Source: a virus (taxonomy: Duplodnaviria > Caudoviricetes). Taken from it: a stretch of 58,392 nt of DNA. Location of the stretch: positions 1 through 58,392 of IMG/VR virus record IMGVR_UViG_3300021427_000036, one strand, 5' to 3'. Below, piece after piece: positions 4,888-47,922 of the stretch; positions within the stretch are counted from its first letter, which is position 1; each line of letters begins with the position of its first letter. Made by a program: the position numbers and the translations under genes. The notes under the pieces are model-generated. The model saw only the letters and a list, made by a program, of their open reading frames with translations. It searched no databases and had not been told where the DNA came from.

Positions 4888-5219
4888 CAGGTCTGTCTCA
4901 CGATCTTGCCCATCCGAGCACGCCCTCGTGATGGTGTGGGAACGTAGCCGACGTAGCGATCAGCCATGCGAATAGCCTGTCGATGAAGGTCGCTCAGTTC
5001 TCGTGCAGCGTTACCTTCGTTGACGTTCACCAGGTTTGCATAGTTTGCTGCCTTCTCCATCCAACCCCAGTAGGCAGCAGCAAAGGGGTCGTTACCTCCT
5101 GCTTCCAGAAAGTCTGCGATGTCCTCGTCAGAGAACATGGTGTTCGCAGCCGTGCCGCCAACTGGAATGCTCTCGCCTACCAGTGCTCTTGTTCTGTCGT
5201 CAAGACTGCGAATCACCAC
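4887..5219 (-). CDS. Head-to-tail adaptor
   Basis: FSDEDIADFL...AAAYWGWMEKAANYANLVNVNEG, typical of gp6/gp15-type adaptors. Confidence 0.7.
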   Translation of the reverse strand: MVIRSLDDRTRALVGESIPVGGTAANTMFSDEDIADFLEAGGNDPFAAAYWGWMEKAANYANLVNVNEGNAARELSDLHRQAIRMADRYVGYVPTPSRGRARMGKIVRQT

Positions 5220-5231
5220 GATTCCCTTCTG

Positions 5232-5654
5232 TTAGACCGATTCCTCGGTCTCTTCCTCTTCGTAGTCCTCCTCGAACAGTTCATCCGAGTCGAACCTGCG
5301 CAGCCGGCCGACCATCTCTTCCTTGTTGCCAGCTACGGACAAACCGCGCTTGGCTAGTTCGGCACGACGCTTGTCGTTGTTCCAACCCTCCTCGTTGGAG
5401 TATTCGGACCCAACGCCGGAGTACTCGCCCTCGTCTTCGACGATTCCACCAGCGTCGCCCATGACGGGGACGGTCTGCTCTTCGAGGGGTGTGACTCGGC
5501 TCTCGGACGAGGCCTCCTCCTCGTCCTCTTCCCCCTCAGGTGGATCTGGCATCTCATAGCCAGCAGGCAGTTGCCCACGTACTCTGAGGTACTCAGCCTC
5601 CTCCCAAGTGAGGTTGCCATTCTCGATGGCTTCGGGATCGATTTCTCTGGTCAA
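5232..5654 (-). CDS. Acidic protein with C-terminal SAP/HeH DNA-binding motif
   Basis: WNNDKRRAELAKRGLSVAGNKEEMVGRLRRFD matches the SAP pattern; likely TTG start after GAAAGGA. Confidence 0.7.
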   Translation of the reverse strand: MTREIDPEAIENGNLTWEEAEYLRVRGQLPAGYEMPDPPEGEEDEEEASSESRVTPLEEQTVPVMGDAGGIVEDEGEYSGVGSEYSNEEGWNNDKRRAELAKRGLSVAGNKEEMVGRLRRFDSDELFEEDYEEEETEESV

Positions 5655-5678
5655 CTCATGTCCTTTCTGTGAGGATGA

Positions 5679-5712
5679 CCTGGTCACCGTCGTTGGGAAA
5701 ACGGTGACCAGG
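5679..5712 (-). terminator. Stem-loop after major capsid gene
   Basis: CCTGGTCACCGT (5679-5690) / ACGGTGACCAGG (5701-5712) 12-bp inverted repeat. Confidence 0.7.
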
Positions 5713-5720
5713 CCAAATCA

Positions 5721-6935: not shown

Positions 6936-6947
6936 GTGTGCCTCCTC

Positions 6948-7325
6948 TCAGGTTCCGATGAACTGGCCGGGAACGATGCGGACGATGAGTCGATCACCTT
7001 CGACAGTGTGGCCAACGACTACCTGAGTCGCTGACTTCGCTGCAGAGCTGACCACCCCAGTGGTGGTGTTGGCCGTGTAGACGGTCCCTGCCACACCCCC
7101 GAACTCGACGAGTTCGCCGTTGGTCAGGACATCTTGAGGATCTCCTGCGGCCTTGTCGAATGGGGATACCAGGAGACCGACGATTCCAGTCTGACCGGCT
7201 CCGATAACCACTCTGCCACTCGAGTTGATGCCCACACCAAGGGGTGCGGCACCACCTGTCAAAGCGGCACTGAGAGGCGCACGGAAAACACCGATTGCAG
7301 AATCGGTTTTGTCGATGCGTGCCAT
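6948..7325 (-). CDS. Capsid decoration/cement-like protein
   Basis: 125 aa G/V/T-rich, between scaffold and MCP. Confidence 0.65.
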   Translation of the reverse strand: MARIDKTDSAIGVFRAPLSAALTGGAAPLGVGINSSGRVVIGAGQTGIVGLLVSPFDKAAGDPQDVLTNGELVEFGGVAGTVYTANTTTGVVSSAAKSATQVVVGHTVEGDRLIVRIVPGQFIGT

Positions 7326-7356
7326 ATTTGGCTGTTATCCCTTCTTTGTTGGCTAG

Positions 7357-8034
7357 TTAGGAGCTGCTTTGACCCCTGTTCGTCATGCTCCTCGCCAAAG
7401 CGGGGAACTTTTCGATCAAGGCATCTTCGTCAACTTCCTTCTGGGACTTGCGACTGCCTCCGAACTTTGAGCCCGACTTGTCCTCTTGGCCATCAGCCAA
7501 AATGAGATGAGGCTTCGCCTTCGCCAAAGCATCTAGTGCAGACTTCACTGACGCTTCATCCAACTCGATCACCGAGGGATCATCTTCGTCTTGTTCTACG
7601 TCGATTTCACCTCGGTCAACGAGCTTCAGAGCATCGTCAACATCCCGGAACTTCAGCTTCTGAGCAACCTTCAGAATGGCGTTGTCGACCGCCTTCGTCT
7701 TGAGTGCTGCAGCGAGCTTCTGTGCCTTGGACTCGGCCTTGGAAGCATTCTCCTTAGCTTGGTCCGTTTCTGACTTCTCCTTGGAGTCCACGTCCTCGAG
7801 CTTCTTGGCCATTGCCTTGTGCTCGCGTTCGAACTTCTTCCGAAGATTCCTCTCCTTCCGAAGTGCTGACTTCAAAGCGTCAGTGTTTTCGGGCTTGTCC
7901 TTGTCTTCCTTCTCCTCGTCTTCATCCTCGGATTCATCTTTGTCCTCAGACTCCTCGTCTTTGTCCTCAGAGTCATCCGTCTCGAAGCCCCGAATTCGGA
8001 GGTTCTGCAACAAGAGTGGCAAGTCCTTACGCAT
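7357..8034 (-). CDS. Scaffolding protein
   Basis: Acidic N-terminus, coiled coil (ALKSALRKER), ALDALAKAKPHL motif. Confidence 0.8.
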   Translation of the reverse strand: MRKDLPLLLQNLRIRGFETDDSEDKDEESEDKDESEDEDEEKEDKDKPENTDALKSALRKERNLRKKFEREHKAMAKKLEDVDSKEKSETDQAKENASKAESKAQKLAAALKTKAVDNAILKVAQKLKFRDVDDALKLVDRGEIDVEQDEDDPSVIELDEASVKSALDALAKAKPHLILADGQEDKSGSKFGGSRKSQKEVDEDALIEKFPALARSMTNRGQSSS

Positions 8035-8176: not shown

Positions 8177-8332
8177 CTACTCGTCGTCGTCGGGAGCTGG
8201 TTCGTCCGGATGCGGAAGATCAGGATCGGGCTCCGCCGGAGGCGGAACACTGGGGCCAGGGACCTGCGGGGGAGCTACGTCAGGCTCCACCGTATCTCCC
8301 GGTACACGGTCTGGATTTGGTACATCACTCAT
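8177..8332 (-). CDS. 51-aa Pro/Asp-rich disordered peptide (not in ORF track)
   Basis: SD GAGGAG; MSDVPNPDRVPGDTVEPDVAPPQVPGPSVPPPAEPDPDLPHPDEPAPDDDE. Confidence 0.55.
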   Translation of the reverse strand: MSDVPNPDRVPGDTVEPDVAPPQVPGPSVPPPAEPDPDLPHPDEPAPDDDE

Positions 8333-8344
8333 CTTTTTCTCCTC

Positions 8345-9958
8345 TTACGCTTTCGACGGGACCTCAGTCCCCTTACTTTCGTTGACCTTCCCCCTGTTGT
8401 TCGACTTGTTCTTCGCCGCTTGTTCCTTCGTGTCCCCCGCCCCGACGGTACGTCCGCCAGGTCCTTCGTGGTCAGTATCATCTTCCTCCGAAGCAAACTG
8501 TTGCTGAGTTTCCAACATCGCAACCGCCATAGCAACCTCTTCTTCGATGATCTGATCCTGGATGTTCTCAGGGAAGACGTAGTCGAGTCGAACTTCCACT
8601 TGCTGACGGTAGTATTCACGAGAGATGACCTTACGGTCAAGCATGTTGTTCAACTCCAAGAACAACTTCTCTCGGTTAACTGGCAACTTCTCGGCCAGCG
8701 TGATCAGCAACTCGGTCTCAGTCCAGTTCTGATTCTCATATTCCAGAACCCAGAACTTCCAGTCATACCAAAGTTGCTGCAGGATTTCTACCCCGGCAGT
8801 GTCACGGTACTCGATCTTGGCCAACGTGGGCATGAACTTCAGTGCTAGGGCAATTCCTGACTCTGCAACCTGGGCATCAACTCGCCCCAAGGCGACATCC
8901 GTCGTGCCCGACCCCTCGAGAACAGAGTCCCCGAGGTAGGTGATGAAGTCAATAACAGGGGTGACGGTGGTGATTCCCTCGAGTCTCTTAACCATCGTGG
9001 CGCCTGGCATCTCCCAGACAGTTCCTGGTACGACCTCCCAATCGGTCTCTCGACCTTGCGAGTCCTTTGGACGACCAGCATCAGTAGCGTACACACCAAG
9101 CCCAACCAAAGCCAGTGAGATCTCAGTATCCGACATGGCTTGGTTGATACCCTTGAAGATGCGCTCATAGCCCTTCAGCTCCGAGTTTCCGAAGTCGTAA
9201 CCCTGCCACTCAGCATTCTTGAAGTGGTACAGAGGGATCGTTGTGATGTTCGAGGGCAGGGGACTAGGTGGAATGACCGAACGAACCTTTTTGGCCTTCT
9301 TCGGATCACTCCAGTTGTCAGTCTCCCAGATGTCCTCCTGCCTCCACACAAAGGGAGAAGTCTTCACCTTGGTGACTGGGTCAATCTCGAACCAGTACCT
9401 CAACACCCTCACTGCCATCTTACTGGGGTCATCAGGGTGAACCCCCGGCTCCACTAACTTTGCCCCAGTCCGTACTTCCATGTCATCCGCGTCAAACTCG
9501 GGAAAGTACAGGGCTGGGTCTACGGAAGTCAGGGAGATTCGCTTCCCTTCCTCCTTGAGCGGATCAGCGGTGATGTGGAAGACAAAGTCCCCTCGAGTAA
9601 CCCCGGAAAGCTTGGCAACCTGGAATCGACTGTAGAACCGTTCCCTCTTAACAAAGTTGCTCAAGAACAGGTCCAGCTCCCCATTCTTCTCAGGATCAGC
9701 CGGCTTGACCTTCATCCCCTTGAGCAGGTAATGGGCAGTGGTATCAACGATGATCTTTGGCTTCGGGATGTAGAGGTCAGGTCCATCCTCATCACGACGA
9801 ATCAGCTCGAAAGCCTCCTCGACCGACCAATACATTGCCTCGTAAACCGTGTAGGCATTGAGCCTCTCTCGATCCTGCTCACCTGGAACCCACTGCGGCA
9901 ATTCCTTGGTATACTCATCTCCCAACGTGCTGTAGGGTGTTACATCGGCCAGTGCCAT
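8345..9958 (-). CDS. Portal protein (SPP1 gp6-like)
   Basis: 537 aa directly after terminase; FGNSEL and AESGIALAL motifs. Confidence 0.88.
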   Translation of the reverse strand: MALADVTPYSTLGDEYTKELPQWVPGEQDRERLNAYTVYEAMYWSVEEAFELIRRDEDGPDLYIPKPKIIVDTTAHYLLKGMKVKPADPEKNGELDLFLSNFVKRERFYSRFQVAKLSGVTRGDFVFHITADPLKEEGKRISLTSVDPALYFPEFDADDMEVRTGAKLVEPGVHPDDPSKMAVRVLRYWFEIDPVTKVKTSPFVWRQEDIWETDNWSDPKKAKKVRSVIPPSPLPSNITTIPLYHFKNAEWQGYDFGNSELKGYERIFKGINQAMSDTEISLALVGLGVYATDAGRPKDSQGRETDWEVVPGTVWEMPGATMVKRLEGITTVTPVIDFITYLGDSVLEGSGTTDVALGRVDAQVAESGIALALKFMPTLAKIEYRDTAGVEILQQLWYDWKFWVLEYENQNWTETELLITLAEKLPVNREKLFLELNNMLDRKVISREYYRQQVEVRLDYVFPENIQDQIIEEEVAMAVAMLETQQQFASEEDDTDHEGPGGRTVGAGDTKEQAAKNKSNNRGKVNESKGTEVPSKA

Positions 9959-11590: not shown

Positions 11591-12097
11591 TCAGACTCGG
11601 AAGACCTGGATCAGGTTGTCCATGCCCTCGCCGGTCCCGCCGTAATCGACGGTGCCACCAGACGTGTAGCCCTGCAGCGAATAGGTGACGCTCACTGCGC
11701 CTGGCGTCTGGACCTTGGACATCGCTATGAGGAAGCCGTACTCCTCGGCACCCATGCTCACTCGGGCACCGCCGATCGTCGCCACCGGCACGGATGACAG
11801 AATCGCCAGGCGAACGAGTCCGCTCGTAGTGCGTTGGCGGAAGGTGACTTGACCGAGCACGACGTAGCGAGCACCAGCGACAGCGGTGAAGGTGACCGCC
11901 AGGCCGGTCAGCAACGTGCCACCCGTGCCAACGTTCTGCAGGGCACCGGTCGCCGTCTGGGTGGCGAGGATGCTGCCGAACTGCGCCTGCAGTGTGTTGT
12001 CGGCGGCGATGCGAGCGGCCTGCTCAGCAACGACCGAAGCGTTGCTGGACGAGATGGGAACCCATGCCCCACCGACTCGGGCGTAAAGGACACCCAT
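11591..12097 (-). CDS. Fibre/appendage-like structural protein
   Basis: [15 protein letters not shown] start, EQAARIAAD coiled coil, beta-sandwich C-terminus; TGATG coupling. Confidence 0.6.
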   Translation of the reverse strand: MGVLYARVGGAWVPISSSNASVVAEQAARIAADNTLQAQFGSILATQTATGALQNVGTGGTLLTGLAVTFTAVAGARYVVLGQVTFRQRTTSGLVRLAILSSVPVATIGGARVSMGAEEYGFLIAMSKVQTPGAVSVTYSLQGYTSGGTVDYGGTGEGMDNLIQVFRV

Positions 12098-13176
12098 CAG
12101 AGCGCTCCAGCGTCTTCGACCATGATCCACGACCAGCGAGGTGCGCTGGCCGGGGTCGCGTGGGGCGTGATACCGGAGCCGTACATCGTGATCGTGCCGG
12201 ACCCCGATGAGCGCTCGGCGTCAACTCGCCAGGTCTGCGCCCCGGAGATCGAAGCCTCGTTGATGTAGTGCATGACGAACGTTCCAAACAGGTTGCCGAG
12301 CGGGCCGATCAGCCACCGCCTGTAGGTGAGTCCGTCCCCGACGTTGCGGAGGTAGACGGCGACCAGGTCGTTGGTGGTGGTCGATGAGACCAGTATCTCA
12401 ATGGTGAACTTGTAGCGCCTCCCGGCGATGTGGGTGATCGTCCCCATCGGACCGAGCACAGTGTTGATGCCCGGCGAGGTGAGGTTCTGGTCGCCGGACT
12501 TGCGCCACATACCCATCGGCCCCTCCGGGCCTCCGATCGCGTCTGAGGCGTCAGAGTCGTACCACAACTCGGCGGTCGGGTTGGTCCCGATCGGATCGGT
12601 AGTGCTGATCTCCACCTCGGAGCCACCACCGCCGGCAGCCGGATTGACCCACTTCGTGTCAAAGTCAGTACCCGAGTTCTTGGCGAGCACCTGGTCAGTA
12701 GTGCCGCCTACCGCCACACCGGGACCTGGAGGGCCGGTTGCGCCGGGAGCGCCATCGACACCATCTTCTCCCGATAGCCCGGTATCGCCTTGTGGACCTT
12801 GTGGACCCTGAGGTCCTTGTGGGCCAATAGCACCATCAGCACCAGCAGGCCCTGGAGCTCCATCGACACCATCTTCACCAGCAGGACCCATCGGACCAGG
12901 ATCACCTTGTGGACCCTCAGGACCAGGTTCACCACCTGATGGGCCTGGCGGGCCGGGGGGACCTGGTGCCCCAGCAACCATCTCCGTGGTTATCACCAGC
13001 GGTTGCTCAACATGAGCACGAACTTGAATCTCATCCGGCGCAACGACCTCAGCGACAACGATCGTCGTCGGTTCCGTCAACCGAACACCAACAACCGTCA
13101 TCGGCTGCGTAACCCGAGCTTCAACAACAATGTTGTCCAGGTCAACAACCGTGGTTGTAACTTGGATATCACTCAC
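12097..13176 (-). CDS. Collagen-like (Gly-X-Y) fibre protein
   Basis: Long GPX/GXX run followed by [20 protein letters not shown] fibre motif. Confidence 0.8.
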
Positions 13177-15232: not shown

Positions 15233-15478
15233 TTACCGTCTGCGTCTTGTTCCACGCCGCTTTTTGCGCTTCTTTCCCTTACCAAGCTTCCTGTTTGCCT
15301 TGGCGACGATCTTGTTATAGCTAGATCTAGACAGTTTGCCCTTGTTCAACTGCTGTCGAGCCCGTGCCTTAGCATTGGCAGCATGAGAACGATCCGGCAT
15401 CGGATACTTTCTCGAGCCTGGAAGCCCAAAAGTGGATTTCTTCAGTCGTTTGCGTCTGCGGGCGGTTAATTTAGCCAT
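15233..15478 (-). CDS. Small highly basic protein (FGLPGxRKYPMPD family)
   Basis: [39 protein letters not shown] with Arg/Lys tail; SD AAGGAGG. Confidence 0.75.
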
Positions 15479-16104
15479 ATATCCTCCTTATGGCTGTCTA
15501 ACGCTGGCATTGGTTGTCTAACGCTGGCGTTGGACTGGATATCTGCTACGCACACCGTTATCAACAAGTCCTGGTCATTTGGAGCTCTTTGGTGGACTGA
15601 AATCTCCTCCAAATGCCACCCTACGGGGCAATTTGGCCCGGGTAATCCGGGAATCCCTGCTGGTCCGGCAGGTCCTTGTGGTCCGCTAGGTCCGATGGGT
15701 CCCGTCTCACCGATGGAGCCTGGTGGACCACTAGGGCCTGGAATTCCCTGGGGGCCTGGAACTCCAGTTGCTCCCGCCGGTCCCGGAGGACCCGTCCCAC
15801 CAGGAGGCCCACTAGCACCGCTAGCCCCATCCACACCAGAAGGCCCACTAGGACCTTGTATGCCAGGTTCACCCTGTTCTCCTTTCGGACCCGCAGGTCC
15901 CTGTTCGCCCTGAGGCCCAATGGGACCCTGAGGTCCGACAATTGTAGCTTGAGGTTCAATGCTAGCGTTGGGCTGGACTACGGGAACGGTAGTATCTACG
16001 GTAATATCTACCTCTGCCGCATTAGACATTAGCCCCGATACCACACCCAAGCCGATCACGCTGAGGATTAAGAGAACAGCTATAAATCCCTGTTTAGGTT
16101 TCAT
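15466..16104 (-). CDS. Collagen-like protein with N-terminal signal/TM segment
   Basis: Hydrophobic N-terminus, long GXY run, C-terminal Cys pair. Confidence 0.75.
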
Positions 16105-16414
16105 GATGCTCCTCCGTTTGAGTATGAGCGACTACTGGGATTTCGTTGGATTGCACTGGAACTTCACCAGTGATCTCATATTCCCGTCGAACTTCCGCCT
16201 GACCTTGTCCCTTACCAGCAATAAACCCGATCAAAGCCCCGATGATCGTGGTGATTATGTCCGTCAATGTAGCCACGTATGCCTTGACATCGTGTCCTTG
16301 GATACCAGCAATGATCGTAGCTACAGTGAAAGCCAAGAGCATGAACCCAATGATAATCACAAACGCAATAACCACGAAGTCCGTCGTAGATTTGGATTCC
16401 GGAATCCTAGGCAT
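16094..16414 (-). CDS. Two-TM membrane protein (holin-like)
   Basis: Two hydrophobic helices; [11 protein letters not shown]. Confidence 0.65.
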
Positions 16415-17180
16415 GACGTGAGCTCCATTGACTAGGGTGGGTAAGGTACGACATCAACTGGTTGCCGATGAGTTCCGTGTAAGCTGGTGGAATTGCCTGC
16501 GATAACTCGTTTCTCGACATCCAATCAATTCCCATCGCCTCCCGACAACGGGATGCCCAGTTCGCCCTATCGGCCTGAGTGAGAAGAATGTCCCGAAGGT
16601 GAGTGTTGATGTAGGCATGACCTACGGGGTTGTAGATGGCACCCTCATGATTCCCACACTCTAGGGCGAGTAGCGGTATGTTGGACTCGAAGAACCGGTG
16701 GCGGATCAGAGGAAGCCCGAAGCTAGTCCCACACAGCCGAATAGTGTGGTCAGGGTCTAATGGAGCCCCATTTACATTCTCAATGATCCAGGGGGTTGGG
16801 TTACCGGTATGGATGTAGACTGTGTTTAACAGGAACCTGGTGGTTTGGATCAGCTTGGGGTGGCGCTTAGACGGACCGGCTAACGACTTGGTGTGTCGTT
16901 TGGTGAGATTGACCCCGTTAGAACTGAAGTTGCCTGCTACGGAGTATCCTTGGCATGGTGGGGACGCATGGATAGCAGAGAACTTATTGAGATTGAGGCG
17001 GGTGTTGGCGCGGAGAACTTCTAAGGCATCCCCCTGGTAGAATGCGTCCCCTACGTAGTAGGGTTGAGGCTCAATATCTACCCCAAAGACCCTGAAGCCG
17101 GCTAGTTGGTAACCACGAGTTGCTCCGCCCGCTCCGCAGAACAGGTCTAGAAGCCAGGGAAGTTCTGTATCGGGTTCCAT
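16407..17180 (-). CDS. DNA (cytosine-5) methyltransferase, short phage type
   Basis: Motif I LDLFCGAGG, motif IV ASPPCQ, motif VI IENV, motif VIII RHRFF. Confidence 0.9.
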   Translation of the reverse strand: MEPDTELPWLLDLFCGAGGATRGYQLAGFRVFGVDIEPQPYYVGDAFYQGDALEVLRANTRLNLNKFSAIHASPPCQGYSVAGNFSSNGVNLTKRHTKSLAGPSKRHPKLIQTTRFLLNTVYIHTGNPTPWIIENVNGAPLDPDHTIRLCGTSFGLPLIRHRFFESNIPLLALECGNHEGAIYNPVGHAYINTHLRDILLTQADRANWASRCREAMGIDWMSRNELSQAIPPAYTELIGNQLMSYLTHPSQWSSRHA

Positions 17181-24566: not shown

Positions 24567-26663
24567 TCATGTCGAATCCTCGGCGTTCTTAGTTGCGTGG
24601 TATTTGTGATCCCGTTTTTGGACGAGATTAGCTTCGACGAGTCTGTTGAGTTGGGCGTGAACGGAACCTGGTTGGAGCCCGGTAGCCTGAGCGATTGTGG
24701 CGGCAGAGACCCATTCATCGTTCACCGTCAGATAGCGGTAGGCCTGGCTATATTCGCCTATGGGGCGTCCGCGTTTCCCATTCGTCGATTTGCGTCGCGT
24801 CGATGAGTTTCCATTGCCTGAGGGCTGTCCCTGGTGATCCGTATGGCTTCCGCCCCCATCGCTCGCATCATCAGGTCTGATCGTGACTTGCGGAGCCCAG
24901 GAGCGATATCGGCGCCCGTTGATTCCAGCAATGGTGAAACCTGGCACGGGAGCGTTCTTGGATTCTTGCTCGCAAACTATGGTACCTCCCCTGCCCAAGC
25001 GGAAATACATAGAGTCTTCGGCCCAGGCATGGTTAGCAACAGAACCCAGGAGCAGCTGTCCGCCTCGCTGATAGCTTGCCTTTGGATCGGTTTTCTTGAG
25101 GTGGTGGATCAGTTGGATAGCCACCCCGTGCTTCCGTGCAAGTTGTTTTAGCGGAGCGAAGATCTTGGTGGTCATTTCCTGAGCCCTGTTTTCCTCAACG
25201 TCCCCGGCCATCATCATCAGTGGATCCAGGACCAGCAGTCGATAACCATCCCCCGAGGCCTTGTCGGCCAAGACTTCATCAAGCCATGATTGCCAGGATT
25301 CGTCGGAGATGGTGAACGATTGTCCTATGTAGGCATCAATATCTAGACCATCGCCCACACTGACCCCATCGGTTACTGGTGGTAGCCAGATGATATCCCC
25401 ATTGGTGCCCTTCACCAACTTGTCGGCTATTTTGGCAGGCCATACTTTACCTACGCGGGCCTTGATGAGTGGAGCGGAATCTTCTTCCTGAACGTATAAC
25501 ACCGGGCCTGGTCGTTCCACTGTAAAGTACCCCAGGAAGGGTTGACCTGAAGCCACCGATAAAGCCATGTCCAGGCCGGCCCAACTCTTGAAAGTTTTTG
25601 GCTGTCCGGCGATGAACCCTACAGCCCCCTCGGTGAGAACATCACGGATGAGCCAAGTCGGAGACTTGAGATTTCGGATAAGAGTGAAGAGATTTGTAGG
25701 CTTTGGTCTGGACTCAAGTTCTTCAAGAAGTTTCTCCGTATCCTCCGGTGTCCTAGCCATGACAGCCTTGTGGGCCTCCGTGGTTAAGCGTCGGAGTTCA
25801 TCCGACCTACCTTCGAACTTGTTCCAGACTGTTGCTCGAACGATGGCAACGATTTCCATAGCCGTGCAACCAGCGTCAGCCAGGTCTCGCTCGATTTGCC
25901 AGAGAGTTTCGCTACGATCGCCAGCAGCAACTCGAGCCGAAACCAACTCTCGAACTCGACTGCTGACCTTAAGCCGAACTCGAGCCCACACCGCATGGCG
26001 GTCGATGTGTTCAATCTCATCCTCGAGAATCTCAGTGACGGGGCCAGCTCCGCCGGGAACTTCAGGAAGGTCTACGAAGCTATCTGAGAAATACTGTTGA
26101 CCTTCGTCCCAAAGGAGTTTACCAGTTGGTGACTTTCCATCCTTACCCCTATACTCCGGTTTGTGGTTGATCCAAGTGGGTAGCCGAAGAAGTTGCGTCG
26201 TATCCCAACCGCTGGGGTCAGCCCCTAGGTAGTAGGTGAGTTGATGGTTTTCTCGACCATGCCAGGAAGCCCCTAACATATCCCCACTGGCAATGAGCCA
26301 AAGAGCCTGGTGCCGGCCGGGGGATGTTTCCCAGGCGATTGTTGGTGGATAATCCACTATACCTCGGGGATCCACTTCATCCAGATCAGCCCAAAGGGCT
26401 CTTTCGTCGCATTGGAACTCAGTTTGACGTACCCGCTCTTCGAAGAGCATCGGACACCAGTACACTTCATTGTGTCGGTTGGCGTCAAGGTGGTTGATGA
26501 TCTTGTCCTTATCCCGAGGCCAATAGAAAGCCCTATTTTCCTTGTAGCTCAAGATGCGTTCTCGTTTGTCCTTGCAATCCCCCCGAATAGTAGGGAAGAA
26601 GCAGTAACCCTTCTGCCTACCCCATGCCTTACTGACGATCTTGAGTATCTGTTCAGCTTCCAA
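24567..26663 (-). CDS. Primase (RepB/prim-pol-type) fused to RecA-like AAA_25 helicase and C-terminal HTH
   Basis: ALWADLDE, WETSPGRHQALW, QLLRLP; Walker A AGQPKTFKS; VLYVQEED; LVLDPL; IHHLKK. Confidence 0.88.
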   Translation of the reverse strand: MEAEQILKIVSKAWGRQKGYCFFPTIRGDCKDKRERILSYKENRAFYWPRDKDKIINHLDANRHNEVYWCPMLFEERVRQTEFQCDERALWADLDEVDPRGIVDYPPTIAWETSPGRHQALWLIASGDMLGASWHGRENHQLTYYLGADPSGWDTTQLLRLPTWINHKPEYRGKDGKSPTGKLLWDEGQQYFSDSFVDLPEVPGGAGPVTEILEDEIEHIDRHAVWARVRLKVSSRVRELVSARVAAGDRSETLWQIERDLADAGCTAMEIVAIVRATVWNKFEGRSDELRRLTTEAHKAVMARTPEDTEKLLEELESRPKPTNLFTLIRNLKSPTWLIRDVLTEGAVGFIAGQPKTFKSWAGLDMALSVASGQPFLGYFTVERPGPVLYVQEEDSAPLIKARVGKVWPAKIADKLVKGTNGDIIWLPPVTDGVSVGDGLDIDAYIGQSFTISDESWQSWLDEVLADKASGDGYRLLVLDPLMMMAGDVEENRAQEMTTKIFAPLKQLARKHGVAIQLIHHLKKTDPKASYQRGGQLLLGSVANHAWAEDSMYFRLGRGGTIVCEQESKNAPVPGFTIAGINGRRYRSWAPQVTIRPDDASDGGGSHTDHQGQPSGNGNSSTRRKSTNGKRGRPIGEYSQAYRYLTVNDEWVSAATIAQATGLQPGSVHAQLNRLVEANLVQKRDHKYHATKNAEDST

Positions 26664-40810: not shown

Positions 40811-41274
40811 TCATTTCTCGTTTCCGCCCGTCAAATCGCTCGTTCCCGGCCGATCAACTGTCCGATACTCAAGGAACTCTTCGGTGCAACCGTTGAGATA
40901 AATTACCATGTCACTCCGAACATCCTTGTCCATGTCATCATTCGCATGGACTTCACTTCGTGCCTTGAGTTCCTCCATCAGTTCTCGGGTCGATGCACAT
41001 CCGAGGTTTGCTTCATTGAAGCTCATGATGCCTGCTTTCCAATCCAGTCTTGTACTTCTTGAGCAACTGCCAAGTATTCCTCACTGGGATCCATTCGTTG
41101 TTCTTGACCTGGGACATAGGCATCCCAAATCTTGGCACGAAGATACACCGGCAACTTGAACCAATGCTTCTTGCACCCCCACATGGCTGGAGGAACTTCA
41201 ATTTTGCAGCCAGGCCAATGGCATGTGTGGCCTCTGCTTTGAGGCTGAGCCTTGACGTAATCTGCTTTGCTCAT
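40811..41274 (-). CDS. Two small hypothetical ORFs (41274-41023 HTCHWPGC type; 41026-40811)
   Basis: ATGA overlaps with polA and with each other. Confidence 0.65.
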
Positions 41275-43826
41275 GCTGCCTTCCTTTCTTCTATAAACTC
41301 GTCCCAGTATTTCTCGAAGTTGTAGACTTGGTCGTCGTTTAGTTCCTTAGCATCACCCCAGTGACTCCCGACTTTCAAGTCCGCAACGATCGGGATGTCT
41401 AGGTCACAACCGAACTTCTTCTTGAGCGGGAGATTCTCCATCGTTCGTTTGATGATGGGCAGTGCTCGAGCAAGGTCCTCGTTCTTAATCTCGAAGTTGA
41501 TCGCGTCGTGAACTAGCCCCAAGGTGTGGCCTTGAATTCCCAGCCGCTTAAACTCCGCATCTATCTCAATCATGGCTATGACGTTCATATCTGAGGCCAT
41601 GCTCTGGACTGGGGAGTTGATTGCCTGTCGCTCGGCTTCATCACGAACTATCTTCTCGGCACTAAAGATGTCAGGGAGATGTCGGATTCGCCCGATGGGT
41701 GACTGAACCCTGCCGTACTGGTTGACGAGTCGTCGTTGCCGAGCATGCCACCCCAGGAAGCCAGGATACATATCGAAGAATGCGATCCTCGATGCTCTTG
41801 CCTCGTCCTCCGAGAAGTCGATGCCGTACTTTTCCTTGGCTGTCTTGATGAACTTCTTCCACCACATACCATAGAGGTATCCGAAGTTCACTGGTTTCGC
41901 AGCCTTGCGTTCTTCCTTGGTGATCTGAGACTTGGACTTTCCCGTCATCTTAGATGCCATCTCAGCGTGGACATCTACTCCGTTTCGGATAAGCCAAAGC
42001 CCATATCGGTCTCTAGAAATGTATACAGCAAGTCGGAATTCAATCTGTCCAAAGTCAGCCTCGACGAAGGTTGAGCCCGGAGGAGCTCCAAATAACCCGC
42101 GGATGAAGGGATCTCTTGGGACTTGTTGAAGATTAACACCTCGCCCTCGATCACGGGAGGCTGTGATTTTCTCCTCATCTTCCTTGCCACTAGATAAACG
42201 TCCAGTGACTGTTCCGGCGAGCTTAAACACAGTATGTATTCTGTCGTCATCCCCGATCACCTCTGAGTATCTCGAAACATAAGTCGAACAATACTTCTGC
42301 CACTTCGATCGTTCCTTTAACAGGTTCAAGACGGGGTGGTCAGGGTACAGGTCATTGAGTGCGATCATAGAGGCTTCAGCAAGAGATGGATCACCTGGAT
42401 CACCATTCTCTTTCTTCTTACCACGCTCGATGACGGGAAACTCAAGGTACTCGAAGATGAACCACCGCATCCAGTTGCTAGCATTGAAGTTCACTTCAGC
42501 TGGTTTCTGTCGCTTCCCCATAAGCGGCCAACCATCAGTTCCAGGCTCGGGTGCAAACTCAAGCAACTGTCGGTCTAGTTCATCACGCATGTCAAACGCG
42601 ATCTTTGTAGCCGTGGCCAATCTCTCCCGATCGGCCCAGATACCCCGCATTTCCACACCGATGAGAATCTCGTTTGCTGGCATGGTCATCAGCTTGAAGA
42701 TTCGTAACAGTCGTGGCTTAGCTATCAAGTCTTTCCGCAAGACTAGATAGATGTGGTAGGTATAGAATGTGTCGAGGCAGTTGTAGTTGTAGATCCTTTG
42801 TAGGGGTGTGTGGAGCAAGTCCTTAGTGTCAATCCCCCACGGTGCTACTCCTAACAACATTCGACCCAGTGGCTTGAGTCCCTTCAACCGATTCTCGTCG
42901 AGCAAATGAGCAGCAAGCATGGTGTCGAAGGTAACACGCATGTTCACTCCTCGAGAACGCATCCACTTGGCATCGAACTTGCCATTGTGAGCGATCTGTT
43001 TAGGCACCCCCTCGAGCGCCGGTTTCAAGAACATCAAGACCTTCTGCCACACCCTCCTGAATGGGCTTTGGGGATGGTACAGCGGGATTACCCACGTTAG
43101 TAGTTTCTCAGTACCGAAGTCATCATACAACATCGTACCGGACAAGGTAACGATTCCACCATTGGGATCCCACTCATCGAGCCCTGCAGTCTCGACGTCG
43201 TAAGAGATAAGGCTAGCCTTTTCAATCTTACGTTTAAGAACCTTCAGCTTTTGCTGAGTGTCAACGATCGCTATCTTCGGTGGCTTGATCTTCCCCGCAT
43301 ACCCATGGATAGTCGATCCGAACAACTGGAGATCAGCTTGCCAAGCCCCTTTCTGACCCGGGTTTCTAGTAACTGAAGCTGGAGAAACAGTGGTGAGGAT
43401 TTGAGCTCCATGCTTAACTTCAACTCTACCCCTCCATTTCATGATCCCAGAGTGACCAAGCAAAGCAGTCAAGGCTTCATTACCAAACCCCAGAATGAAC
43501 TTAGGCTTGACCATCTCTATCTCTTGTAGGAGATAGGTTTCTGAACAGACCTTGATATCCTTACGACCAGGGTCCACATCGAAAGCCCTACACTTCATGA
43601 CTGAAGTGAAGAAAACACGATCCAGTTCAATCCCTACCTCTTGCAGAGCTATCTCGATCATGTCCTGGTACATTGGACCATTCGGCATGCGAGATACGAC
43701 CATGATGTCGGCATCATTCCGACCAATTCCAGGCTCGCACACATCACCAGTGTACTGATGTAGCTTACACAGCTTGCAGTTTTGATCGTAGTTGATCGGG
43801 AATAGATCAGGGTCTATTGCGATCAT
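41271..43826 (-). CDS. polA: Family A DNA polymerase with N-terminal UDG-like domain and 3'-5' exonuclease
   Basis: CKLC/KCR Fe-S Cys; exo YDVET, HNGKFD, FDTM; TGRLSS; motif A ADFGQIEFR; motif B RKAAKPVNFG; motif C VHDA. Confidence 0.95.
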   Translation of the reverse strand: MIAIDPDLFPINYDQNCKLCKLHQYTGDVCEPGIGRNDADIMVVSRMPNGPMYQDMIEIALQEVGIELDRVFFTSVMKCRAFDVDPGRKDIKVCSETYLLQEIEMVKPKFILGFGNEALTALLGHSGIMKWRGRVEVKHGAQILTTVSPASVTRNPGQKGAWQADLQLFGSTIHGYAGKIKPPKIAIVDTQQKLKVLKRKIEKASLISYDVETAGLDEWDPNGGIVTLSGTMLYDDFGTEKLLTWVIPLYHPQSPFRRVWQKVLMFLKPALEGVPKQIAHNGKFDAKWMRSRGVNMRVTFDTMLAAHLLDENRLKGLKPLGRMLLGVAPWGIDTKDLLHTPLQRIYNYNCLDTFYTYHIYLVLRKDLIAKPRLLRIFKLMTMPANEILIGVEMRGIWADRERLATATKIAFDMRDELDRQLLEFAPEPGTDGWPLMGKRQKPAEVNFNASNWMRWFIFEYLEFPVIERGKKKENGDPGDPSLAEASMIALNDLYPDHPVLNLLKERSKWQKYCSTYVSRYSEVIGDDDRIHTVFKLAGTVTGRLSSGKEDEEKITASRDRGRGVNLQQVPRDPFIRGLFGAPPGSTFVEADFGQIEFRLAVYISRDRYGLWLIRNGVDVHAEMASKMTGKSKSQITKEERKAAKPVNFGYLYGMWWKKFIKTAKEKYGIDFSEDEARASRIAFFDMYPGFLGWHARQRRLVNQYGRVQSPIGRIRHLPDIFSAEKIVRDEAERQAINSPVQSMASDMNVIAMIEIDAEFKRLGIQGHTLGLVHDAINFEIKNEDLARALPIIKRTMENLPLKKKFGCDLDIPIVADLKVGSHWGDAKELNDDQVYNFEKYWDEFIEERKAA

Positions 43827-44260
43827 AGCTCTATTATATCAATCCCTGCTTGCTGGAGCAATATCTCCCCATCTTTTATTCTGTAGTCGGTATGGTAATA
43901 AACAGAGGTGATGCCCGCGTTGACGATGAGTTCAGCACACTTGAGACAAGGGAGATGAGTGCAATAAAGACTAGCCCGTCGTGTTCTAATACCATGTCGT
44001 GCGGCGAAAGCAATGCAGTTAGCTTCCGCATGGACTGCTCGAAGACATCCCGTATCGGCGGTTCGGTCAAGCTCCGTACACCCATTGGGATCGGTGCAGT
44101 GAGGGAGCCCGGAGGGAGGACCATTGTAACCTGTGACAAGAACTCTGCCGTTTCTTGCGATGACAGCACCAACTTGAGCTCGAAGACAAGTACCCCGCTG
44201 GGCCACCACGTGAGCGATTTGCATACATATCTCATCTCTAGACAACCGCTCCATATCCAT
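43823..44260 (-). CDS. dCMP deaminase (ComEB-like)
   Basis: TGYNG, HAEAN, PCLKC. Confidence 0.92.
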   Translation of the reverse strand: MDMERLSRDEICMQIAHVVAQRGTCLRAQVGAVIARNGRVLVTGYNGPPSGLPHCTDPNGCTELDRTADTGCLRAVHAEANCIAFAARHGIRTRRASLYCTHLPCLKCAELIVNAGITSVYYHTDYRIKDGEILLQQAGIDIIEL

Positions 44261-45065
44261 TCTCCCACTCTTCATCTTCCCACTTGCCCAGCATGTATTG
44301 GATCCTTTCGTAGTCACCTCGGAATACGTGGAGACTTGAGATGTGCATCACTAGCTGCATGGATCGAGCCAACCCCACCCCTAATTGATCCAGCATCCAC
44401 TGAAGCAGTCGTGCAGCCATGTATACATCATCAGTGAAGTGCCGTAACAAGTCACAGGAACGAATGTAGTATACGATGTCCGCTCGCCAAGGTCGGATCA
44501 GGAAGTGATAGCCCAGGGTACACGGTACCCGCTGACCATATACCGCACCTGTATCTTCGGGAAACCAGATGGGTAAGAATGCTTGGCGAGTCATTGGATT
44601 TCGCTTGAGCTGATTGACTACATCTTTCAGGTCTCCGTACTCATACCGAACACCCATCATCCTGAACCTTGTCCGCTGAGGTCCATTCTCTATTTGGGCT
44701 TGCTTTGGCCACATTCGTTCTGGGTATGAGTGACTGAACTTTCCGTCAACCTTGTGTTCAGTATTTTGTACCCGAGCATAGGGCCACCATGCCTCGGAAG
44801 GTGGAGGGTTGAGTGGCTTCCCAGAGACTCGTTCCAGAAAATGATCCTCAGCCCATGGTCGGCTCAAGGTGGCACCCATGAAGTCGTCCAGCGATGACTT
44901 GAGCATAGGAATTTCCATCTCGAATCGCTGATGCGTTAACTCTCGACTGATCATTTCCGGATTCGTACGGACGTCCTGGGATTGCCATTCACCGACTTCC
45001 ACTTCGACGCCTTCACGCATAACATCACGAAGGAATCGGTGAAGAGCATGTTCAAAGGGTGTCAT
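44238..45065 (-). CDS. Thymidylate-synthase-fold enzyme, cytosine-type (putative dCMP methylase/hydroxymethylase)
   Basis: TRQA, VPCTLGYHF, RSCDLLRHFTDD, HISSLHVF. Confidence 0.8.
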   Translation of the reverse strand: MTPFEHALHRFLRDVMREGVEVEVGEWQSQDVRTNPEMISRELTHQRFEMEIPMLKSSLDDFMGATLSRPWAEDHFLERVSGKPLNPPPSEAWWPYARVQNTEHKVDGKFSHSYPERMWPKQAQIENGPQRTRFRMMGVRYEYGDLKDVVNQLKRNPMTRQAFLPIWFPEDTGAVYGQRVPCTLGYHFLIRPWRADIVYYIRSCDLLRHFTDDVYMAARLLQWMLDQLGVGLARSMQLVMHISSLHVFRGDYERIQYMLGKWEDEEWENGYGAVV

Positions 45066-45379
45066 TAGTCCTCACTTAAGACAAACTCTAATTCTTCTGC
45101 TTCACCGACCCGAGCCAGGTATAGATAGAGGGCAAGGATCCGATCAGGGTCATCTTTCAATAACCCTAAAGCCATATTACAGTTCCCGCAAAGAAGACCT
45201 CTGAAGTATCCTGTTCTATGGCTATGGTCTCGGTGAAGTTGTCGATTGGTAGGTGGAGTTTGACAAGCAGCACATCCCCCACTCTGTTTGGCTAACTCAC
45301 CATCGTAGTCCAGGCCTTGCCTAAGTCTACGTTGTCGTTTTTGACGGGCATTGTAGGCTTCTCGATCTTTTCTCATCAA
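45065..45379 (-). CDS. Endonuclease VII-family nuclease
   Basis: CAAC...DHSH..G..RGLLCGNCN. Confidence 0.85.
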   Translation of the reverse strand: MMRKDREAYNARQKRQRRLRQGLDYDGELAKQSGGCAACQTPPTNRQLHRDHSHRTGYFRGLLCGNCNMALGLLKDDPDRILALYLYLARVGEAEELEFVLSED

Positions 45380-46458
45380 TCCTCATCCAGATCGTTGAAC
45401 TCGACTAGGTCTCCTTGCACCAACATCGGAGCACCTAGACTACCTGGAGCCCAAGGCAAATGAATGCCTTTGAAGTCTAAGTCGGAGATAAAACACGTAT
45501 CCAAGGGTTTGTATGCCCGGAAGAACTCTTTCGGCTCTCCCTTGAGTGCCCCTTTCTTATGGTATGACCACCCCTCAAACTGCTGCGCCCGCTCATACCC
45601 AAGGACCTCTGTGTGGTATCGGCGTCGGATTCTCCGATAGGTGTTGTAGGTCATGTCACCCAGCGTCTTACCGTTCTGATCATCTAGGATCAGCTTCTGC
45701 AACCACTTCCTCGTCAGATGCAAGGCAGGTCGTGAGTTCACGTAATCCCAGTCACCCAAGTCACGGAGCTTGGACTCACTGAACCTCAGCCAACGACGGT
45801 ACTCCTTTCGTTTGACCGGGTCAGGATGATTCAACAAATAAGCCATGGACTTGAAGTTGTGGTACTGCATGGCCTCGTTCATCCAAACGAATGCCATATC
45901 TTCCACACCAATTCCCAGCTCGGCAGCCAGATACTTAGCAGCCATCCAGGCAACAGAAATATCAAGCCCAGATAGATAACCGAGATAACTAGTGCGAGAA
46001 TATAGGGTAATTTGCGGTCGTGGCTGCGCCTTGTAGCTAACTGCCAGCATACAGCTTCCCCATCGTCGCGTTTCTTTGTTGCCAAATGCCTCACCTCCTC
46101 GAGCCGCCACGGTCTTGGTTCTCATCAGGGCAATGCCCCGTTCCTTGGTTCCGATGTACTGAGTGCATTTCTCAACCCATCGGATGAATTCGTCTCGATC
46201 GACATACTGCCTGACCATCATAGTCCAGCGAGACGGTGTCAACCAAAGATTCTTCAGGTCAAATTCCCATTCCATCGAGTCCGCTGCGGCGATCACATTG
46301 TGAATTTGTACATCCACACCGCTGATGACATCTAAGCCATTTTCGTCAGCGTGAACGATGTGATGACACAGTTTGTCATGGAGTTGGGTTAGGGTGGGGG
46401 CACGGAATGCTTTCATCAGTCGGGGAGTTTGACCTTTCCGGGGTTTGCTTTTTGCCAT
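45376..46458 (-). CDS. Divergent second thymidylate-synthase-like protein
   Basis: RRWGSCMLAVSY...ITLYSRTSYLGYLSGLD aligns by eye to TS PC...QLYQRSCD...N. Confidence 0.6.
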   Translation of the reverse strand: MAKSKPRKGQTPRLMKAFRAPTLTQLHDKLCHHIVHADENGLDVISGVDVQIHNVIAAADSMEWEFDLKNLWLTPSRWTMMVRQYVDRDEFIRWVEKCTQYIGTKERGIALMRTKTVAARGGEAFGNKETRRWGSCMLAVSYKAQPRPQITLYSRTSYLGYLSGLDISVAWMAAKYLAAELGIGVEDMAFVWMNEAMQYHNFKSMAYLLNHPDPVKRKEYRRWLRFSESKLRDLGDWDYVNSRPALHLTRKWLQKLILDDQNGKTLGDMTYNTYRRIRRRYHTEVLGYERAQQFEGWSYHKKGALKGEPKEFFRAYKPLDTCFISDLDFKGIHLPWAPGSLGAPMLVQGDLVEFNDLDED

Positions 46459-46646
46459 GACCTGAAGTCATTGGCCGCGTCGACAACCGAAGCGAGCTTG
46501 TCACCATCCTGCTGGTAATCCTCCAGCAAGGAGGCATAGTGAACGAGCACCATGACACTGAGAATGTCTTGAGCTCGGAAGATGAAAATGGGTTCGTCTG
46601 GCTGCAGGTGTGCCAAAATCTCCCCTGCCTTACTGGACGTGGTCAC
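46416..46646 (-). CDS. Hypothetical protein (DEPxFxxRAQD type)
   Basis: Overlaps neighbours in the nucleotide operon. Confidence 0.65.
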   Translation of the reverse strand: MTTSSKAGEILAHLQPDEPIFIFRAQDILSVMVLVHYASLLEDYQQDGDKLASVVDAANDFRSWQKANPGKVKLPD

Positions 46647-47049
46647 AATGACCTACCTCTCTGCCGCACTCACGGCATTTCTCTAGCCCGGTATATCCCT
46701 CGATCTGTCGCCGAGCATTCTCAGCATTCTTTTCCATATACATCCGGAAGAACATATCAACCAAGTCACTTGGTTCCATCCCGGTCGCACAGAGGAGCAT
46801 GTTCATGTAGAAATGGAAGGCATCAACCATCTCCCTTACGAACTCAGTAACATTGATTGTACGATCGGTAGCCCAAGGCTTCCACCCAACCTCTTGCATG
46901 GCTTCGTGGATCTCATCCTCCAGAGCAAAGGCATTCCACCGCATGAAGTCTGCCATGTCATTTCCATCCAGGTGACGAGGATCACCTCCCATGTGCCTCC
47001 GTTGGAGCTCAAGTTGAGCCTCCAACATCGTAGTGAAGAAGTCAGGCAT
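46630..47049 (-). CDS. All-alpha dNTP pyrophosphatase (dimeric dUTPase/dCTPase, MazG superfamily)
   Basis: EDEIHEAMQEVGWKPW, EMVDAFHF, KNAENARRQIEGY. Confidence 0.85.
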   Translation of the reverse strand: MPDFFTTMLEAQLELQRRHMGGDPRHLDGNDMADFMRWNAFALEDEIHEAMQEVGWKPWATDRTINVTEFVREMVDAFHFYMNMLLCATGMEPSDLVDMFFRMYMEKNAENARRQIEGYTGLEKCRECGREVGHCDHVQ

Positions 47050-47584
47050 TTCCCATCTCCTTTACTCGGAAGTCAGCCCAACGAAGAAGCTGAGCTAGGT
47101 GAACAAGATCAGGGTTCGTGTAATCCCACACCATCGACGATGAGTTATAGCCGTCTCGAGCATACCAGGCCACATAGCCATAGTAGATTTCCTCGACGTG
47201 TTCGAGAACCTTACCCCCTGAGTTGTCATCTCTTTCCAGATTTGCCTTGACCACCTCGAGCGGAGGCAAACAATAGATGAGGACTGGGTCGATCCGACTC
47301 AGCCTCTTATACTGGATCTTCAACCAGTCAGGGTTTGTCAAGGGATCTACGAACGTTCGGTTCTCCAGCATCATGTAGAGTGGAGAAGAGATGAGGGCAA
47401 AGCGATCGTACAACCGCATGCCGAATCCTTTGGACAACTCATCCTCGATGTACTGCCCCATCGGAAACAATGACTGAGCGTCACTAGTGACTGCCTTCGG
47501 TTCTCGTTGGAGACTCCAGTCAGCCTCTATCCGAGACACGAGGTTGCTCTTGCCGGCGCCATCCGGGCCCTCGACTATAATCAC
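47042..47584 (-). CDS. dNMP (thymidylate-type) kinase
   Basis: IIVEGPDGAGKS, YDR. Confidence 0.85.
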   Translation of the reverse strand: MIIVEGPDGAGKSNLVSRIEADWSLQREPKAVTSDAQSLFPMGQYIEDELSKGFGMRLYDRFALISSPLYMMLENRTFVDPLTNPDWLKIQYKRLSRIDPVLIYCLPPLEVVKANLERDDNSGGKVLEHVEEIYYGYVAWYARDGYNSSSMVWDYTNPDLVHLAQLLRWADFRVKEMGNA

Positions 47585-47922
47585 GTTGGTTTACCTCCTA
47601 GGTATTCGATGATTCGGAAGAGATACTTCTCCACAAAAGCCAACTTGGTATTGCAGCTGTAGCAGAGTAAACCTCTCACTTTGCCGGTTTGATGATCGTG
47701 GTCTACAGCAAGTCGAGTTTTACATTGGCTCTGATGCTTACTACATATAGCACATCGGAAATCTTGAGCCTTCTCCAAAGCTCTAATCTCAGCCTGAGTT
47801 ATCCCCGTTGCCTTAGTGACCTCGCTGTTTGTGGATCGCTGGGCTTGACGACGCTCCCTCTGCTGGTCAAGCTTGCGTTGTTTCTCATGAGGTAACACCA
47901 ATGGGCCACCCCTACGAGTCAT
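47581..47922 (-). CDS. Endonuclease VII-family nuclease
   Basis: CAIC...LAVDHDHQTGKVRGLLCYSCN. Confidence 0.88.
   Translation of the reverse strand: MTRRGGPLVLPHEKQRKLDQQRERRQAQRSTNSEVTKATGITQAEIRALEKAQDFRCAICSKHQSQCKTRLAVDHDHQTGKVRGLLCYSCNTKLAFVEKYLFRIIEYLGGKPT

Follow-up and report, generated by a model that had tools for sequence, protein, structure and literature searches.

Organization of the cassette

The uncultured virus record IMGVR_UViG_3300021427_000036 (Duplodnaviria; Caudoviricetes) is complete at 58,392 bases, and this entire stretch of DNA is what we refer to as the window. Its minus strand carries, at positions 41271–47922, an operon in which the stops and starts of neighboring genes overlap or abut throughout and which contains two genes related to thymidylate synthase (TS), here designated TS-like 1 and TS-like 2. 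A prediction made earlier from the letters alone (the original prediction) had placed a kinase, an all-alpha dNTPase, a small open reading frame (ORF), TS-like 2, an EndoVII, TS-like 1, a deoxycytidine monophosphate (dCMP) deaminase and PolA in one operon, and this composition was borne out by the coordinates, Pfam, PHROGs and structural models. The polymerase gene lies beyond the interval 43823–47584 to which that prediction referred. When the labels of the operon genes were checked with Pfam and PHROGs, all were confirmed except those of the kinase, which was recognized by PHROGs only, and of TS-like 2. The genes of the operon are as follows (aa, amino acids; NTP, nucleoside triphosphate; UDG, uracil-DNA glycosylase):

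47581–47922, minus strand: EndoVII/HNH-type endonuclease, 113 aa (PF02945, 72.9 bits)
47042–47584, minus strand: P-loop nucleoside/nucleotide kinase, 180 aa (phrog_761 and the fold of an AlphaFold2 model in Foldseek)
46630–47049, minus strand: all-alpha NTP pyrophosphatase (PPase), 139 aa (PF08761, 38.4 bits)
46416–46646, minus strand: 76-aa ORF (no family match)
45376–46458, minus strand: TS-like 2, 360 aa as listed (phrog_13667 and the TS fold of its model)
45065–45379, minus strand: second EndoVII/HNH-type endonuclease, 104 aa, between the two TS-fold genes (PF02945, 60.2 bits)
44238–45065, minus strand: TS-like 1, 275 aa (PF00303, 34.4 bits)
43823–44317, minus strand: dCMP-family zinc deaminase, 164 aa as listed (PF00383, 76 bits)
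41271–43826, minus strand: UDG-PolA, 851 aa (PF00476, PF01612, PF03167)

No phage record matched the cassette at the nucleotide level. A 14-row alignment of TS-like 2 was used to find 80 related loci in IMG/VR. The presence of operon genes was counted out of 81 loci, and residue conservation was assessed among 83 members of the TS-like 2 family and among 79 TS-like 1 rows having a residue at the position in question. Residue positions at the TS active site are given in the numbering of Escherichia coli ThyA, and the Pfam scan of the window covered 40 proteins.

TS-like 1 resembles the cytosine-specific branch of the TS family

TS-like 1 exceeded the PF00303 cut-off of 24.3 bits with a score of 34.4 bits (33.1 bits in a search of its own genome), the match being confined to residues 128–261 in the C-terminal half of the protein. 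It did not reach the NCBIfam equivalogs for ThyA, scoring 34.6 against a cut-off of 174.55 for TIGR03283 and 22.2 against 327 for NF002497. Judged by its sequence, TS-like 1 is a divergent, weak but genuine member of PF00303 and is of the cytosine type. The best sequence match in the PDB was the CMP hydroxymethylase MilA (E = 1.6e-5), followed by the N229D mutant of L. casei TS, and HMMER placed the last Asp of the TS-like 1 motif on residue 229 of this mutant and on the Asp of MilA. In a MAFFT alignment with ThyA and T4 gp42, of which the N-terminal half was unreliable and was not used, D213 fell on N177 of E. coli ThyA and on D179 of T4 gp42. The residues of TS-like 1 with their E. coli counterparts in parentheses are C182 (C146), T183 (H147; Thr also in gp42 and MilA), R202 (R166), D205 (D169), D213 (N177), R179 (L143), Q161 (R127), F248 (Y209) and H246 (H207). 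Within the family, C182, R202 and D213 were found in 79/79 rows, the residue at position 169 (D205) was Asp in 75 rows and Glu in four, position 147 was occupied by Thr or Ser, and position 143 was Arg in every one of the 79 rows. The motifs of both TS-like proteins read in the translations as the original prediction had them, and the Asp that it assigned to the specificity position of TS-like 1 was recovered in both the HMMER and the MAFFT alignments and throughout the family.

According to Lee et al. (2026; PMC13326640), Asp177 confers dCMP specificity in the TS family, an acidic residue at position 143 accompanies a hydroxymethyl product, and Asn169 is the mark of flavin-dependent 5-hydroxy-dCMP synthases. 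Yang et al. (2021; PMC8670742) name positions 177 and 147 as those that discriminate best between modified and unmodified metavirome contigs. The Asn177 expected of a ThyA is absent from TS-like 1, in which Asp213 was invariant. Among the two residues that define a gp42-type dCMP hydroxymethylase, Asp177 is present in both TS-like proteins and an acidic residue at 143 is present in neither; the Asn169 of the 5-hydroxy-dCMP synthases is replaced by Asp or Glu in TS-like 1 and by Tyr in TS-like 2. The invariant Arg143 of TS-like 1, being neither acidic as in hydroxymethylases nor Leu as in ThyA, fits neither published class, and the product of the enzyme may be 5-methyl-dCMP or 5-hydroxymethyl-dCMP.

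TS-like 2 is a conserved protein with a predicted TS fold

TS-like 2 was assigned to phrog_13667, a family of unknown function (E = 2.8e-105). A Pfam search (E ≤ 0.01) with this protein and 72 of its relatives resulted in a match to any family in 0/73 cases, and PDB searches by sequence, with the single protein as well as with a profile, identified no TS and returned only a gasdermin-like protein and A20 at chance level. An AlphaFold2 model based on a 73-row alignment reached a predicted local distance difference test (pLDDT) score of 91.7. When this model was compared with the PDB using Foldseek, 113 matches were obtained at E ≤ 0.001, the best being AfhB (9iqu, E = 2.2e-7), MilA, T4 dCMP hydroxymethylase (dCH) and ThyA; among the matches listed, one row was from outside the TS family, the de novo designed hydrolase 4f2v. 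VIA-align superimposed the model on AfhB 9iqu with a Z score of 14.8 (187 residues aligned, root-mean-square deviation 3.7), on MilA with a Z score of 14.2 and on many ThyA entries with Z scores of ~11. On the evidence of this model, TS-like 2 has a TS fold; the original prediction had named the lack of this fold as grounds for giving it up.

The assignment of individual residues came from hhalign comparisons of TS-like 2 with TS profiles, which had probabilities of 1.5% (E = 0.034) and 20.6% (E = 0.0011). Both of these weak alignments agreed on C136 = C146, R155 = R166, Y158 = D169 and D166 = N177, and the weak profile alignments further gave W133 = L143, M137 = H147, W192 = W201, H200 = H207 and F202 = Y209. 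The spacing between the Cys and the Arg, 19 residues compared with 20 in E. coli, fits this register. The residues C136, R155, Y158, D166, Y85, W192, R276 and R280 were present in 83/83 family members, and position 143 was Trp in 73 of them and Leu in eight. With a register that rests on weak alignments and on spacing, the family appears to agree with the original prediction that TS-like 2 has Asp at position 177 and keeps the Cys, and that the Asp of its RSxD motif is lost (Tyr158). Additional features of the protein are a helical, Arg-rich insertion of ~80 residues (about 214–295) containing an R-x-R-x-R-x-H-x-E motif, and an acidic C-terminal tail. The gene is present as originally predicted, with a minor correction to its extent: the listed start gives 360 aa, and the protein probably starts at Met15 and has 346 aa, based on the Atlas record and on homologs of 345–347 aa.

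Because the equivalents of the catalytic Cys, Arg166 and Asp177 are invariant, we propose that TS-like 2 is catalytically competent and predict that it binds a cytosine nucleotide. It would be expected to differ from TS-like 1 in chemistry or co-substrate, given that a Tyr stands where Asp169 would anchor the folate, and given the bulky Trp143 and the Arg-rich insertion. The possibility that TS-like 2 is a decayed paralog was considered and rejected on account of the invariance of its catalytic positions. Fused forms of the two proteins were sought among longer proteins and none was found, which is weak evidence. The literature searched, with the supplements of the MetaGPA papers outside its range, did not describe any second TS-fold enzyme or any pair of such enzymes.

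The two TS-fold genes occur together in a conserved gene order

Relatives of TS-like 2 formed 1015 clusters at 90% identity and 195 clusters at 50% identity. They were also found in 85 cultured phage records, with hosts belonging to Gordonia (68), Mycobacterium (9), Streptomyces (4), Microbacterium (2), Curtobacterium (1) and Mycobacteroides (1). Across the 80 IMG/VR loci, genes for an SNF2 helicase, the kinase, the PPase, TS-like 2, TS-like 1, the deaminase and PolA succeeded one another in an almost invariant order, and TS-like 1 followed TS-like 2 in all but one of them, the exception being a contig that ends just past TS-like 2. The two genes abutted or overlapped in 25/80 loci; the other 55 had a gap of 4 to 1100 bases between them, frequently occupied by unrelated small ORFs or homing endonucleases. 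A conserved small gene at this place was sought among 47 intervening ORFs, and none was found, the largest cluster having three members.

The same order of genes was observed in the cultured actinophages Huwbert and JacoRen57. In Microbacterium phage Huwbert, gene 68 (8266–9069 of its locus) encodes a canonical ThyA (PF00303, 404 bits) and comes directly after the TS-like pair, such that three TS-fold genes stand in a row; the pair is therefore not merely the dTMP synthase of that phage. Pseudomonas phage PMBT14 and Brevundimonas phage Strzyga showed this order as well, with a shorter "hypothetical" partner at the position of TS-like 2 (262 aa, 5141–5929 of the PMBT14 locus; 279 aa, 5078–5917 of the Strzyga locus). 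Neither partner was detected by the TS-like 2 hidden Markov model (HMM) or by Pfam. Their link to TS-like 2 was made through a fold match in BFVD, where the PMBT14 partner (A0A2I6PI74) ranked fourth among the matches of the TS-like 2 model (E = 6.7e-7), and through motifs read by eye, which in the PMBT14 partner are a Cys, R-S-T-E and an Asp eleven residues past the Arg. Genes of the TS-like 1 clade, those of PMBT14 and Strzyga included, seem never to be without a partner, and both proteins therefore most likely act in one pathway.

Kinase, pyrophosphatase, deaminase and polymerase

The kinase matched phrog_761 ("thymidylate kinase", E = 4.7e-13) and no Pfam family. Its AlphaFold2 model (pLDDT 93.3) was closest in Foldseek to deoxyadenosine kinase 2jaq, S. 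aureus TMPK 4dwj and YorR 3kb2, and a homolog was present in 76/81 loci; we propose that it is a deoxynucleoside monophosphate (dNMP) kinase for the modified dCMP. The PPase scores 38.4 bits against a PF08761 cut-off of 22.9 bits, and the T4 dCTPase/dUTPase gp56 falls in the same family (25.4 bits). A BLASTP comparison of the two proteins gave E = 3e-9 with 28% identity over 115 columns, and by sequence the PPase is homologous to dCTPases/dUTPases of the gp56 type, from which its substrate is predicted.

The deaminase was identified by PF00383 (76 bits) and PF14437 (51.7 bits), contains the HAE and PCxxC zinc motifs in its translation and was found in 76/81 loci. Its reading frame overlaps the stop of TS-like 1, its true start is probably further in than listed, and the start of PolA overlaps its stop by 4 bases. 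The dCMP deaminase of PMBT14 (6775–7734 of its locus) is a longer protein of 319 aa, with ~175 extra N-terminal residues that have no Pfam match. The UDG-PolA protein combines PF00476 (225 bits) with a 3'-5' exonuclease domain (PF01612, 50 bits), and residues 33–162 at its N-terminal end form a UDG-superfamily domain (PF03167, 47 bits).

Three ORFs of the operon lie outside the conserved cassette. The 76-aa ORF matched nothing in Pfam, PHROG or NCBIfam and has a homolog in 7/81 loci. Homologs of the EndoVII genes at 47581–47922 and 45065–45379 were found in only one and two of the 81 loci, respectively, for which reason both have the appearance of free-standing homing endonuclease insertions; the one at the head of the cassette is probably a mobile insertion.

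A C5 DNA methyltransferase and other genes of the window

At positions 16407–17180, on the minus strand, the window encodes a short C5-type DNA methyltransferase of 257 aa (PF00145, 28.4 bits; phrog_363, E = 1e-33), which carries the catalytic motifs FxGxG, PCQ and ENV. Other actinophages frequently carry homologs (311 phage records). The gene was absent from 49/49 cassette-bearing relatives searched, 48 of which were at least 90% complete, in a search that included a positive control.

Among the 40 window proteins scanned with Pfam there was no glycosyltransferase, in agreement with the original prediction that none is visible, and no dihydrofolate reductase (DHFR). Apart from the TS-like pair, no ThyA or ThyX was found in the window. 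Proteins with collagen triple-helix repeats (PF01391) are encoded at 12097–13176 and 15466–16104, both on the minus strand, and are probably tail fiber or decoration proteins. A further minus-strand gene (24567–26663, 698 aa) encodes a fusion of a RepB-type primase with an AAA_25 (DnaB/RecA-like) ATPase and a C-terminal winged-helix (MarR-like) stretch.

Proposed pathway and alternative explanations

The type of cassette described here has been reported before. In the published work, PF00303, PF00383, PF14437 and PRA-PH are enriched and co-occur on contigs of cytosine-modified phage DNA (PMC8670742), and a TS lies within 3 kb of a dCMP deaminase in 104 of 149 cytosine-modified contigs compared with 17 of 277 unmodified ones, with PRA-PH, DNA_pol_A and its exonuclease as other leading neighbors (10.1101/2024.12.05.627091). 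According to the latter source, five of the seven TS homologs tested gave 5-methyl-dCMP, and one deaminase turns 5-methyl-dCTP into dTTP, as proposed for Xp12. A cassette of an Asp177 TS, a deaminase, a MazG-type PPase and PolA is already a published marker of cytosine-modified phage DNA (MetaGPA papers; Xp12), and the route from a dC nucleotide through a 5-methyl-dC nucleotide to T by way of an in-cis deaminase, which the original prediction offered as its alternative, is likewise published for Xp12-like phages and for metavirome contigs (10.1101/2024.12.05.627091; PMC8670742). As far as our searches reached, the new part is TS-like 2.

We lean, with moderate confidence, toward the view that the cassette, like those of T4 and Xp12, serves to modify cytosine nucleotides ahead of replication, and that one extra, undescribed enzyme has been added to it; the steps are suggested by homology and by gene neighborhood. 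In such a module, the gp56-like PPase would convert dCTP (and dUTP) to the monophosphates. Cys182 of TS-like 1 would attack C6 of dCMP, and a one-carbon unit from methylene-tetrahydrofolate would be placed on C5, with the folate anchored by Asp169, which TS-like 1 retains; 5-methyl-dCMP or 5-hydroxymethyl-dCMP would be the product. The P-loop kinase would phosphorylate the modified dCMP and the adjacent PolA would incorporate it, while the in-cis deaminase could supply the T branch from dCMP or, as in Xp12-like phages, from a 5-methyl-dC nucleotide. TS-like 2 should act in the pathway of TS-like 1, given its enzyme-like constraint, its apparent fit to a cytosine nucleotide, its lack of the folate anchor and the company of TS-like 1 in the loci examined, and it might contribute a further step, a separate activity or another subunit. 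The original prediction of a C5-modified dCMP made with the help of the phage's own kinase and pool sanitizer is supported in part: the kinase fold and the gp56-like PPase fit it, and the methyltransferase argues against a complete replacement of C.

Several observations weigh against the proposed module. A C5 methyltransferase would be pointless if all C were already substituted at C5, and its presence hence argues that some cytosines in this DNA are unsubstituted; the absence of the enzyme from the relatives is what would be expected if C5 is normally occupied. Four-base palindromes containing C and G are mildly under-represented in the window (z = −4.5 for TGCA, −3.0 for GCGC and −2.7 for GGCC), a pattern that resembles DNA still exposed to restriction and that is too weak to decide the modification state. 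TS-like 1 is related only distantly to enzymes of proven function (it scores 23 bits with the Xp12 TS, in addition to the E value of 1.6e-5 for its best PDB match), the residue register of TS-like 2 is drawn from profile alignments of low probability, and JacoRen57 and Strzyga have no deaminase. In ThyA, Arg127 and Tyr209 make contacts to the phosphate and the 3'-OH. Both TS-like proteins have lost these two residues (Arg127 to Gln or Gly, Tyr209 to Phe), so the substrate may not be a plain dNMP.

That the cassette serves an ordinary supply of thymidylate appears improbable to us. The deaminase would in this case provide dUMP, TS-like 1 would be a divergent dTMP synthase working with a TMP kinase and a dUTPase, and TS-like 2 would be accessory or decayed. 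All four database labels, including the GenBank annotations of the cultured relatives, agree with such a function, as does the lack of any other ThyA or ThyX in the window, and the methyltransferase together with the mild palindrome avoidance would suit unmodified DNA. These points are countered by the Asp177 in place of Asn in all TS-like 1 rows and the Thr/Ser147 shared with T4 gp42 and MilA, by scores far below the ThyA equivalog cut-offs, by the additional canonical ThyA in Huwbert and by the strong constraint on the catalytic positions of TS-like 2 in 83/83 members. A different possibility, and one that we hold to be doubtful, is that TS-like 1 and TS-like 2 form an obligate mixed dimer at the TS interface and make a single product that needs both. 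TS active sites receive arginines from the partner subunit, and the equivalent of Arg126 is kept and that of Arg127 lost in both proteins. The TS-like 1 clade is apparently always partnered, and no partner accompanies the more ThyA-like TS of Xp12; the abutting or overlapping stops and starts in 25 loci are also compatible with a mixed dimer. As pure speculation, the same could be said of the two out of seven Asp-type TS homologs that gave no 5-methyl-dC when expressed alone (10.1101/2024.12.05.627091). On the other side, the genes are 4 to 1100 bases apart in most loci without a conserved linker gene, each protein appears to retain its own full catalytic set, and the failure to find a fused form among longer proteins adds weak evidence against an obligate partnership.

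We consider it similarly unlikely that the two proteins have parallel activities, both acting on unsubstituted dCMP (or one of them on CMP or dCTP) and adding different C5 groups, with methyl or hydroxymethyl added by TS-like 1 and, for example, a folate-independent hydroxyl by TS-like 2. Structurally, TS-like 2 is nearest to the dCMP hydroxylase AfhB and to MilA, with Z scores above those of ThyA, and its Asp169 is replaced. In our putative register, the invariant Tyr85 is positioned 51 residues before the Cys, similar to E. coli Tyr94, the C5 proton base, which is 52 residues before Cys146. However, the mark of the 5-hydroxy-dCMP synthases is Asn169 (PMC13326640), at which position TS-like 2 has Tyr throughout the family; AfhB does not stand out from MilA, their Z scores being tied, and the 40 proteins scanned include no glycosyltransferase or other follow-on enzyme. 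A more far-reaching reading, to which we likewise give a low probability, is that TS-like 2 works independently of folate, re-forming the exocyclic C5-methylene intermediate on the product of TS-like 1 by means of its own Cys and adding another nucleophile, or is the subunit of a mixed dimer that does so. If this is true, the carriers of this protein, with more than 1000 protein clusters and with cultured phages of Gordonia, Microbacterium, Streptomyces and Mycobacterium among them, would build an undescribed cytosine derivative at the nucleotide level.

The identity of the second protein matters because the presence of Asp-type TS homologs is now taken, from sequence alone, as a predictor of phage genomes with modified cytosine. 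A second TS-fold enzyme beside the recognizable TS is invisible to Pfam and was "hypothetical" in every cultured phage record examined. Should TS-like 2 change the product, any prediction for this large lineage that considers just the recognizable TS would be mistaken, and its cultured phages, which grow on harmless laboratory hosts, could yield an unknown base or a TS-fold reaction not seen before. The matter also bears on the encounter of these phages with restriction and with modification-dependent defense.

Comparison with known systems

The CMP 5-hydroxymethylase MilA (5b6d, 5jnh) shares the Cys-Thr-Leu motif and Asp177 with TS-like 1. It differs in having a ribonucleotide substrate and a role in antibiotic synthesis in Streptomyces, in the Asp at position 143 and in the retention of Tyr209. 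The flavin-dependent 5-hydroxy-dCMP synthases, which comprise AfhB of phage HY126 (9iqu/9iqc), RB69 gp48 and DLP3 gp80 (PMC13326640), are the structures to which TS-like 2 is most similar (Z = 14.8 and 14.7). Enzymes of the AfhB type and TS-like 2 appear alike in possessing Asp177 and in the replacement of Asp169; the diagnostic residue at 169 is Asn in the former and Tyr in the latter, the identity is 12–13%, and the ~80-residue insertion and acidic tail are found only in TS-like 2.

With the 5-hydroxymethylcytosine pathway of T4, the cassette has four functions in common, provided in T4 by the dCTPase/dUTPase gp56, the dCMP hydroxymethylase gp42, the dNMP kinase gp1 and the deaminase cd. T4 gp42 and TS-like 1 both contain the Cys, Thr147, Arg166, Asp169 and Asp177, and diverge at position 143, where gp42 has Asp (Asp145) and TS-like 1 has Arg; the residue of TS-like 2 at this position is Trp. 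Relative to T4, the window has an extra TS-fold gene, a polymerase of family A instead of family B and, among the proteins scanned, no glucosyltransferase; its cassette genes are clustered, whereas those of T4 are scattered.

The Xp12-type 5-methylcytosine pathway (record MT664984) shares with the window an Asp-type TS, an adjoining deaminase of the dCMP family and an all-alpha NTP-PPase. The neighborhood of Xp12-type phages and metavirome contigs also has PolA and an exonuclease close by and a Cas4-like nuclease and a helicase further on, as does the window, in which the Asp177 TS is less than 3 kb from the PF00383 deaminase with the PPase and PolA nearby. Xp12 has a single TS homolog, and the HMM detected no TS-like 2 in it. 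The Xp12 TS scores 92.5 bits against Huwbert gp68, the canonical ThyA, and 23 bits against TS-like 1; it keeps the His-x-Tyr at positions 207–209, and Xp12 has a DHFR. The P-loop kinase of the cassette is an addition relative to Xp12.

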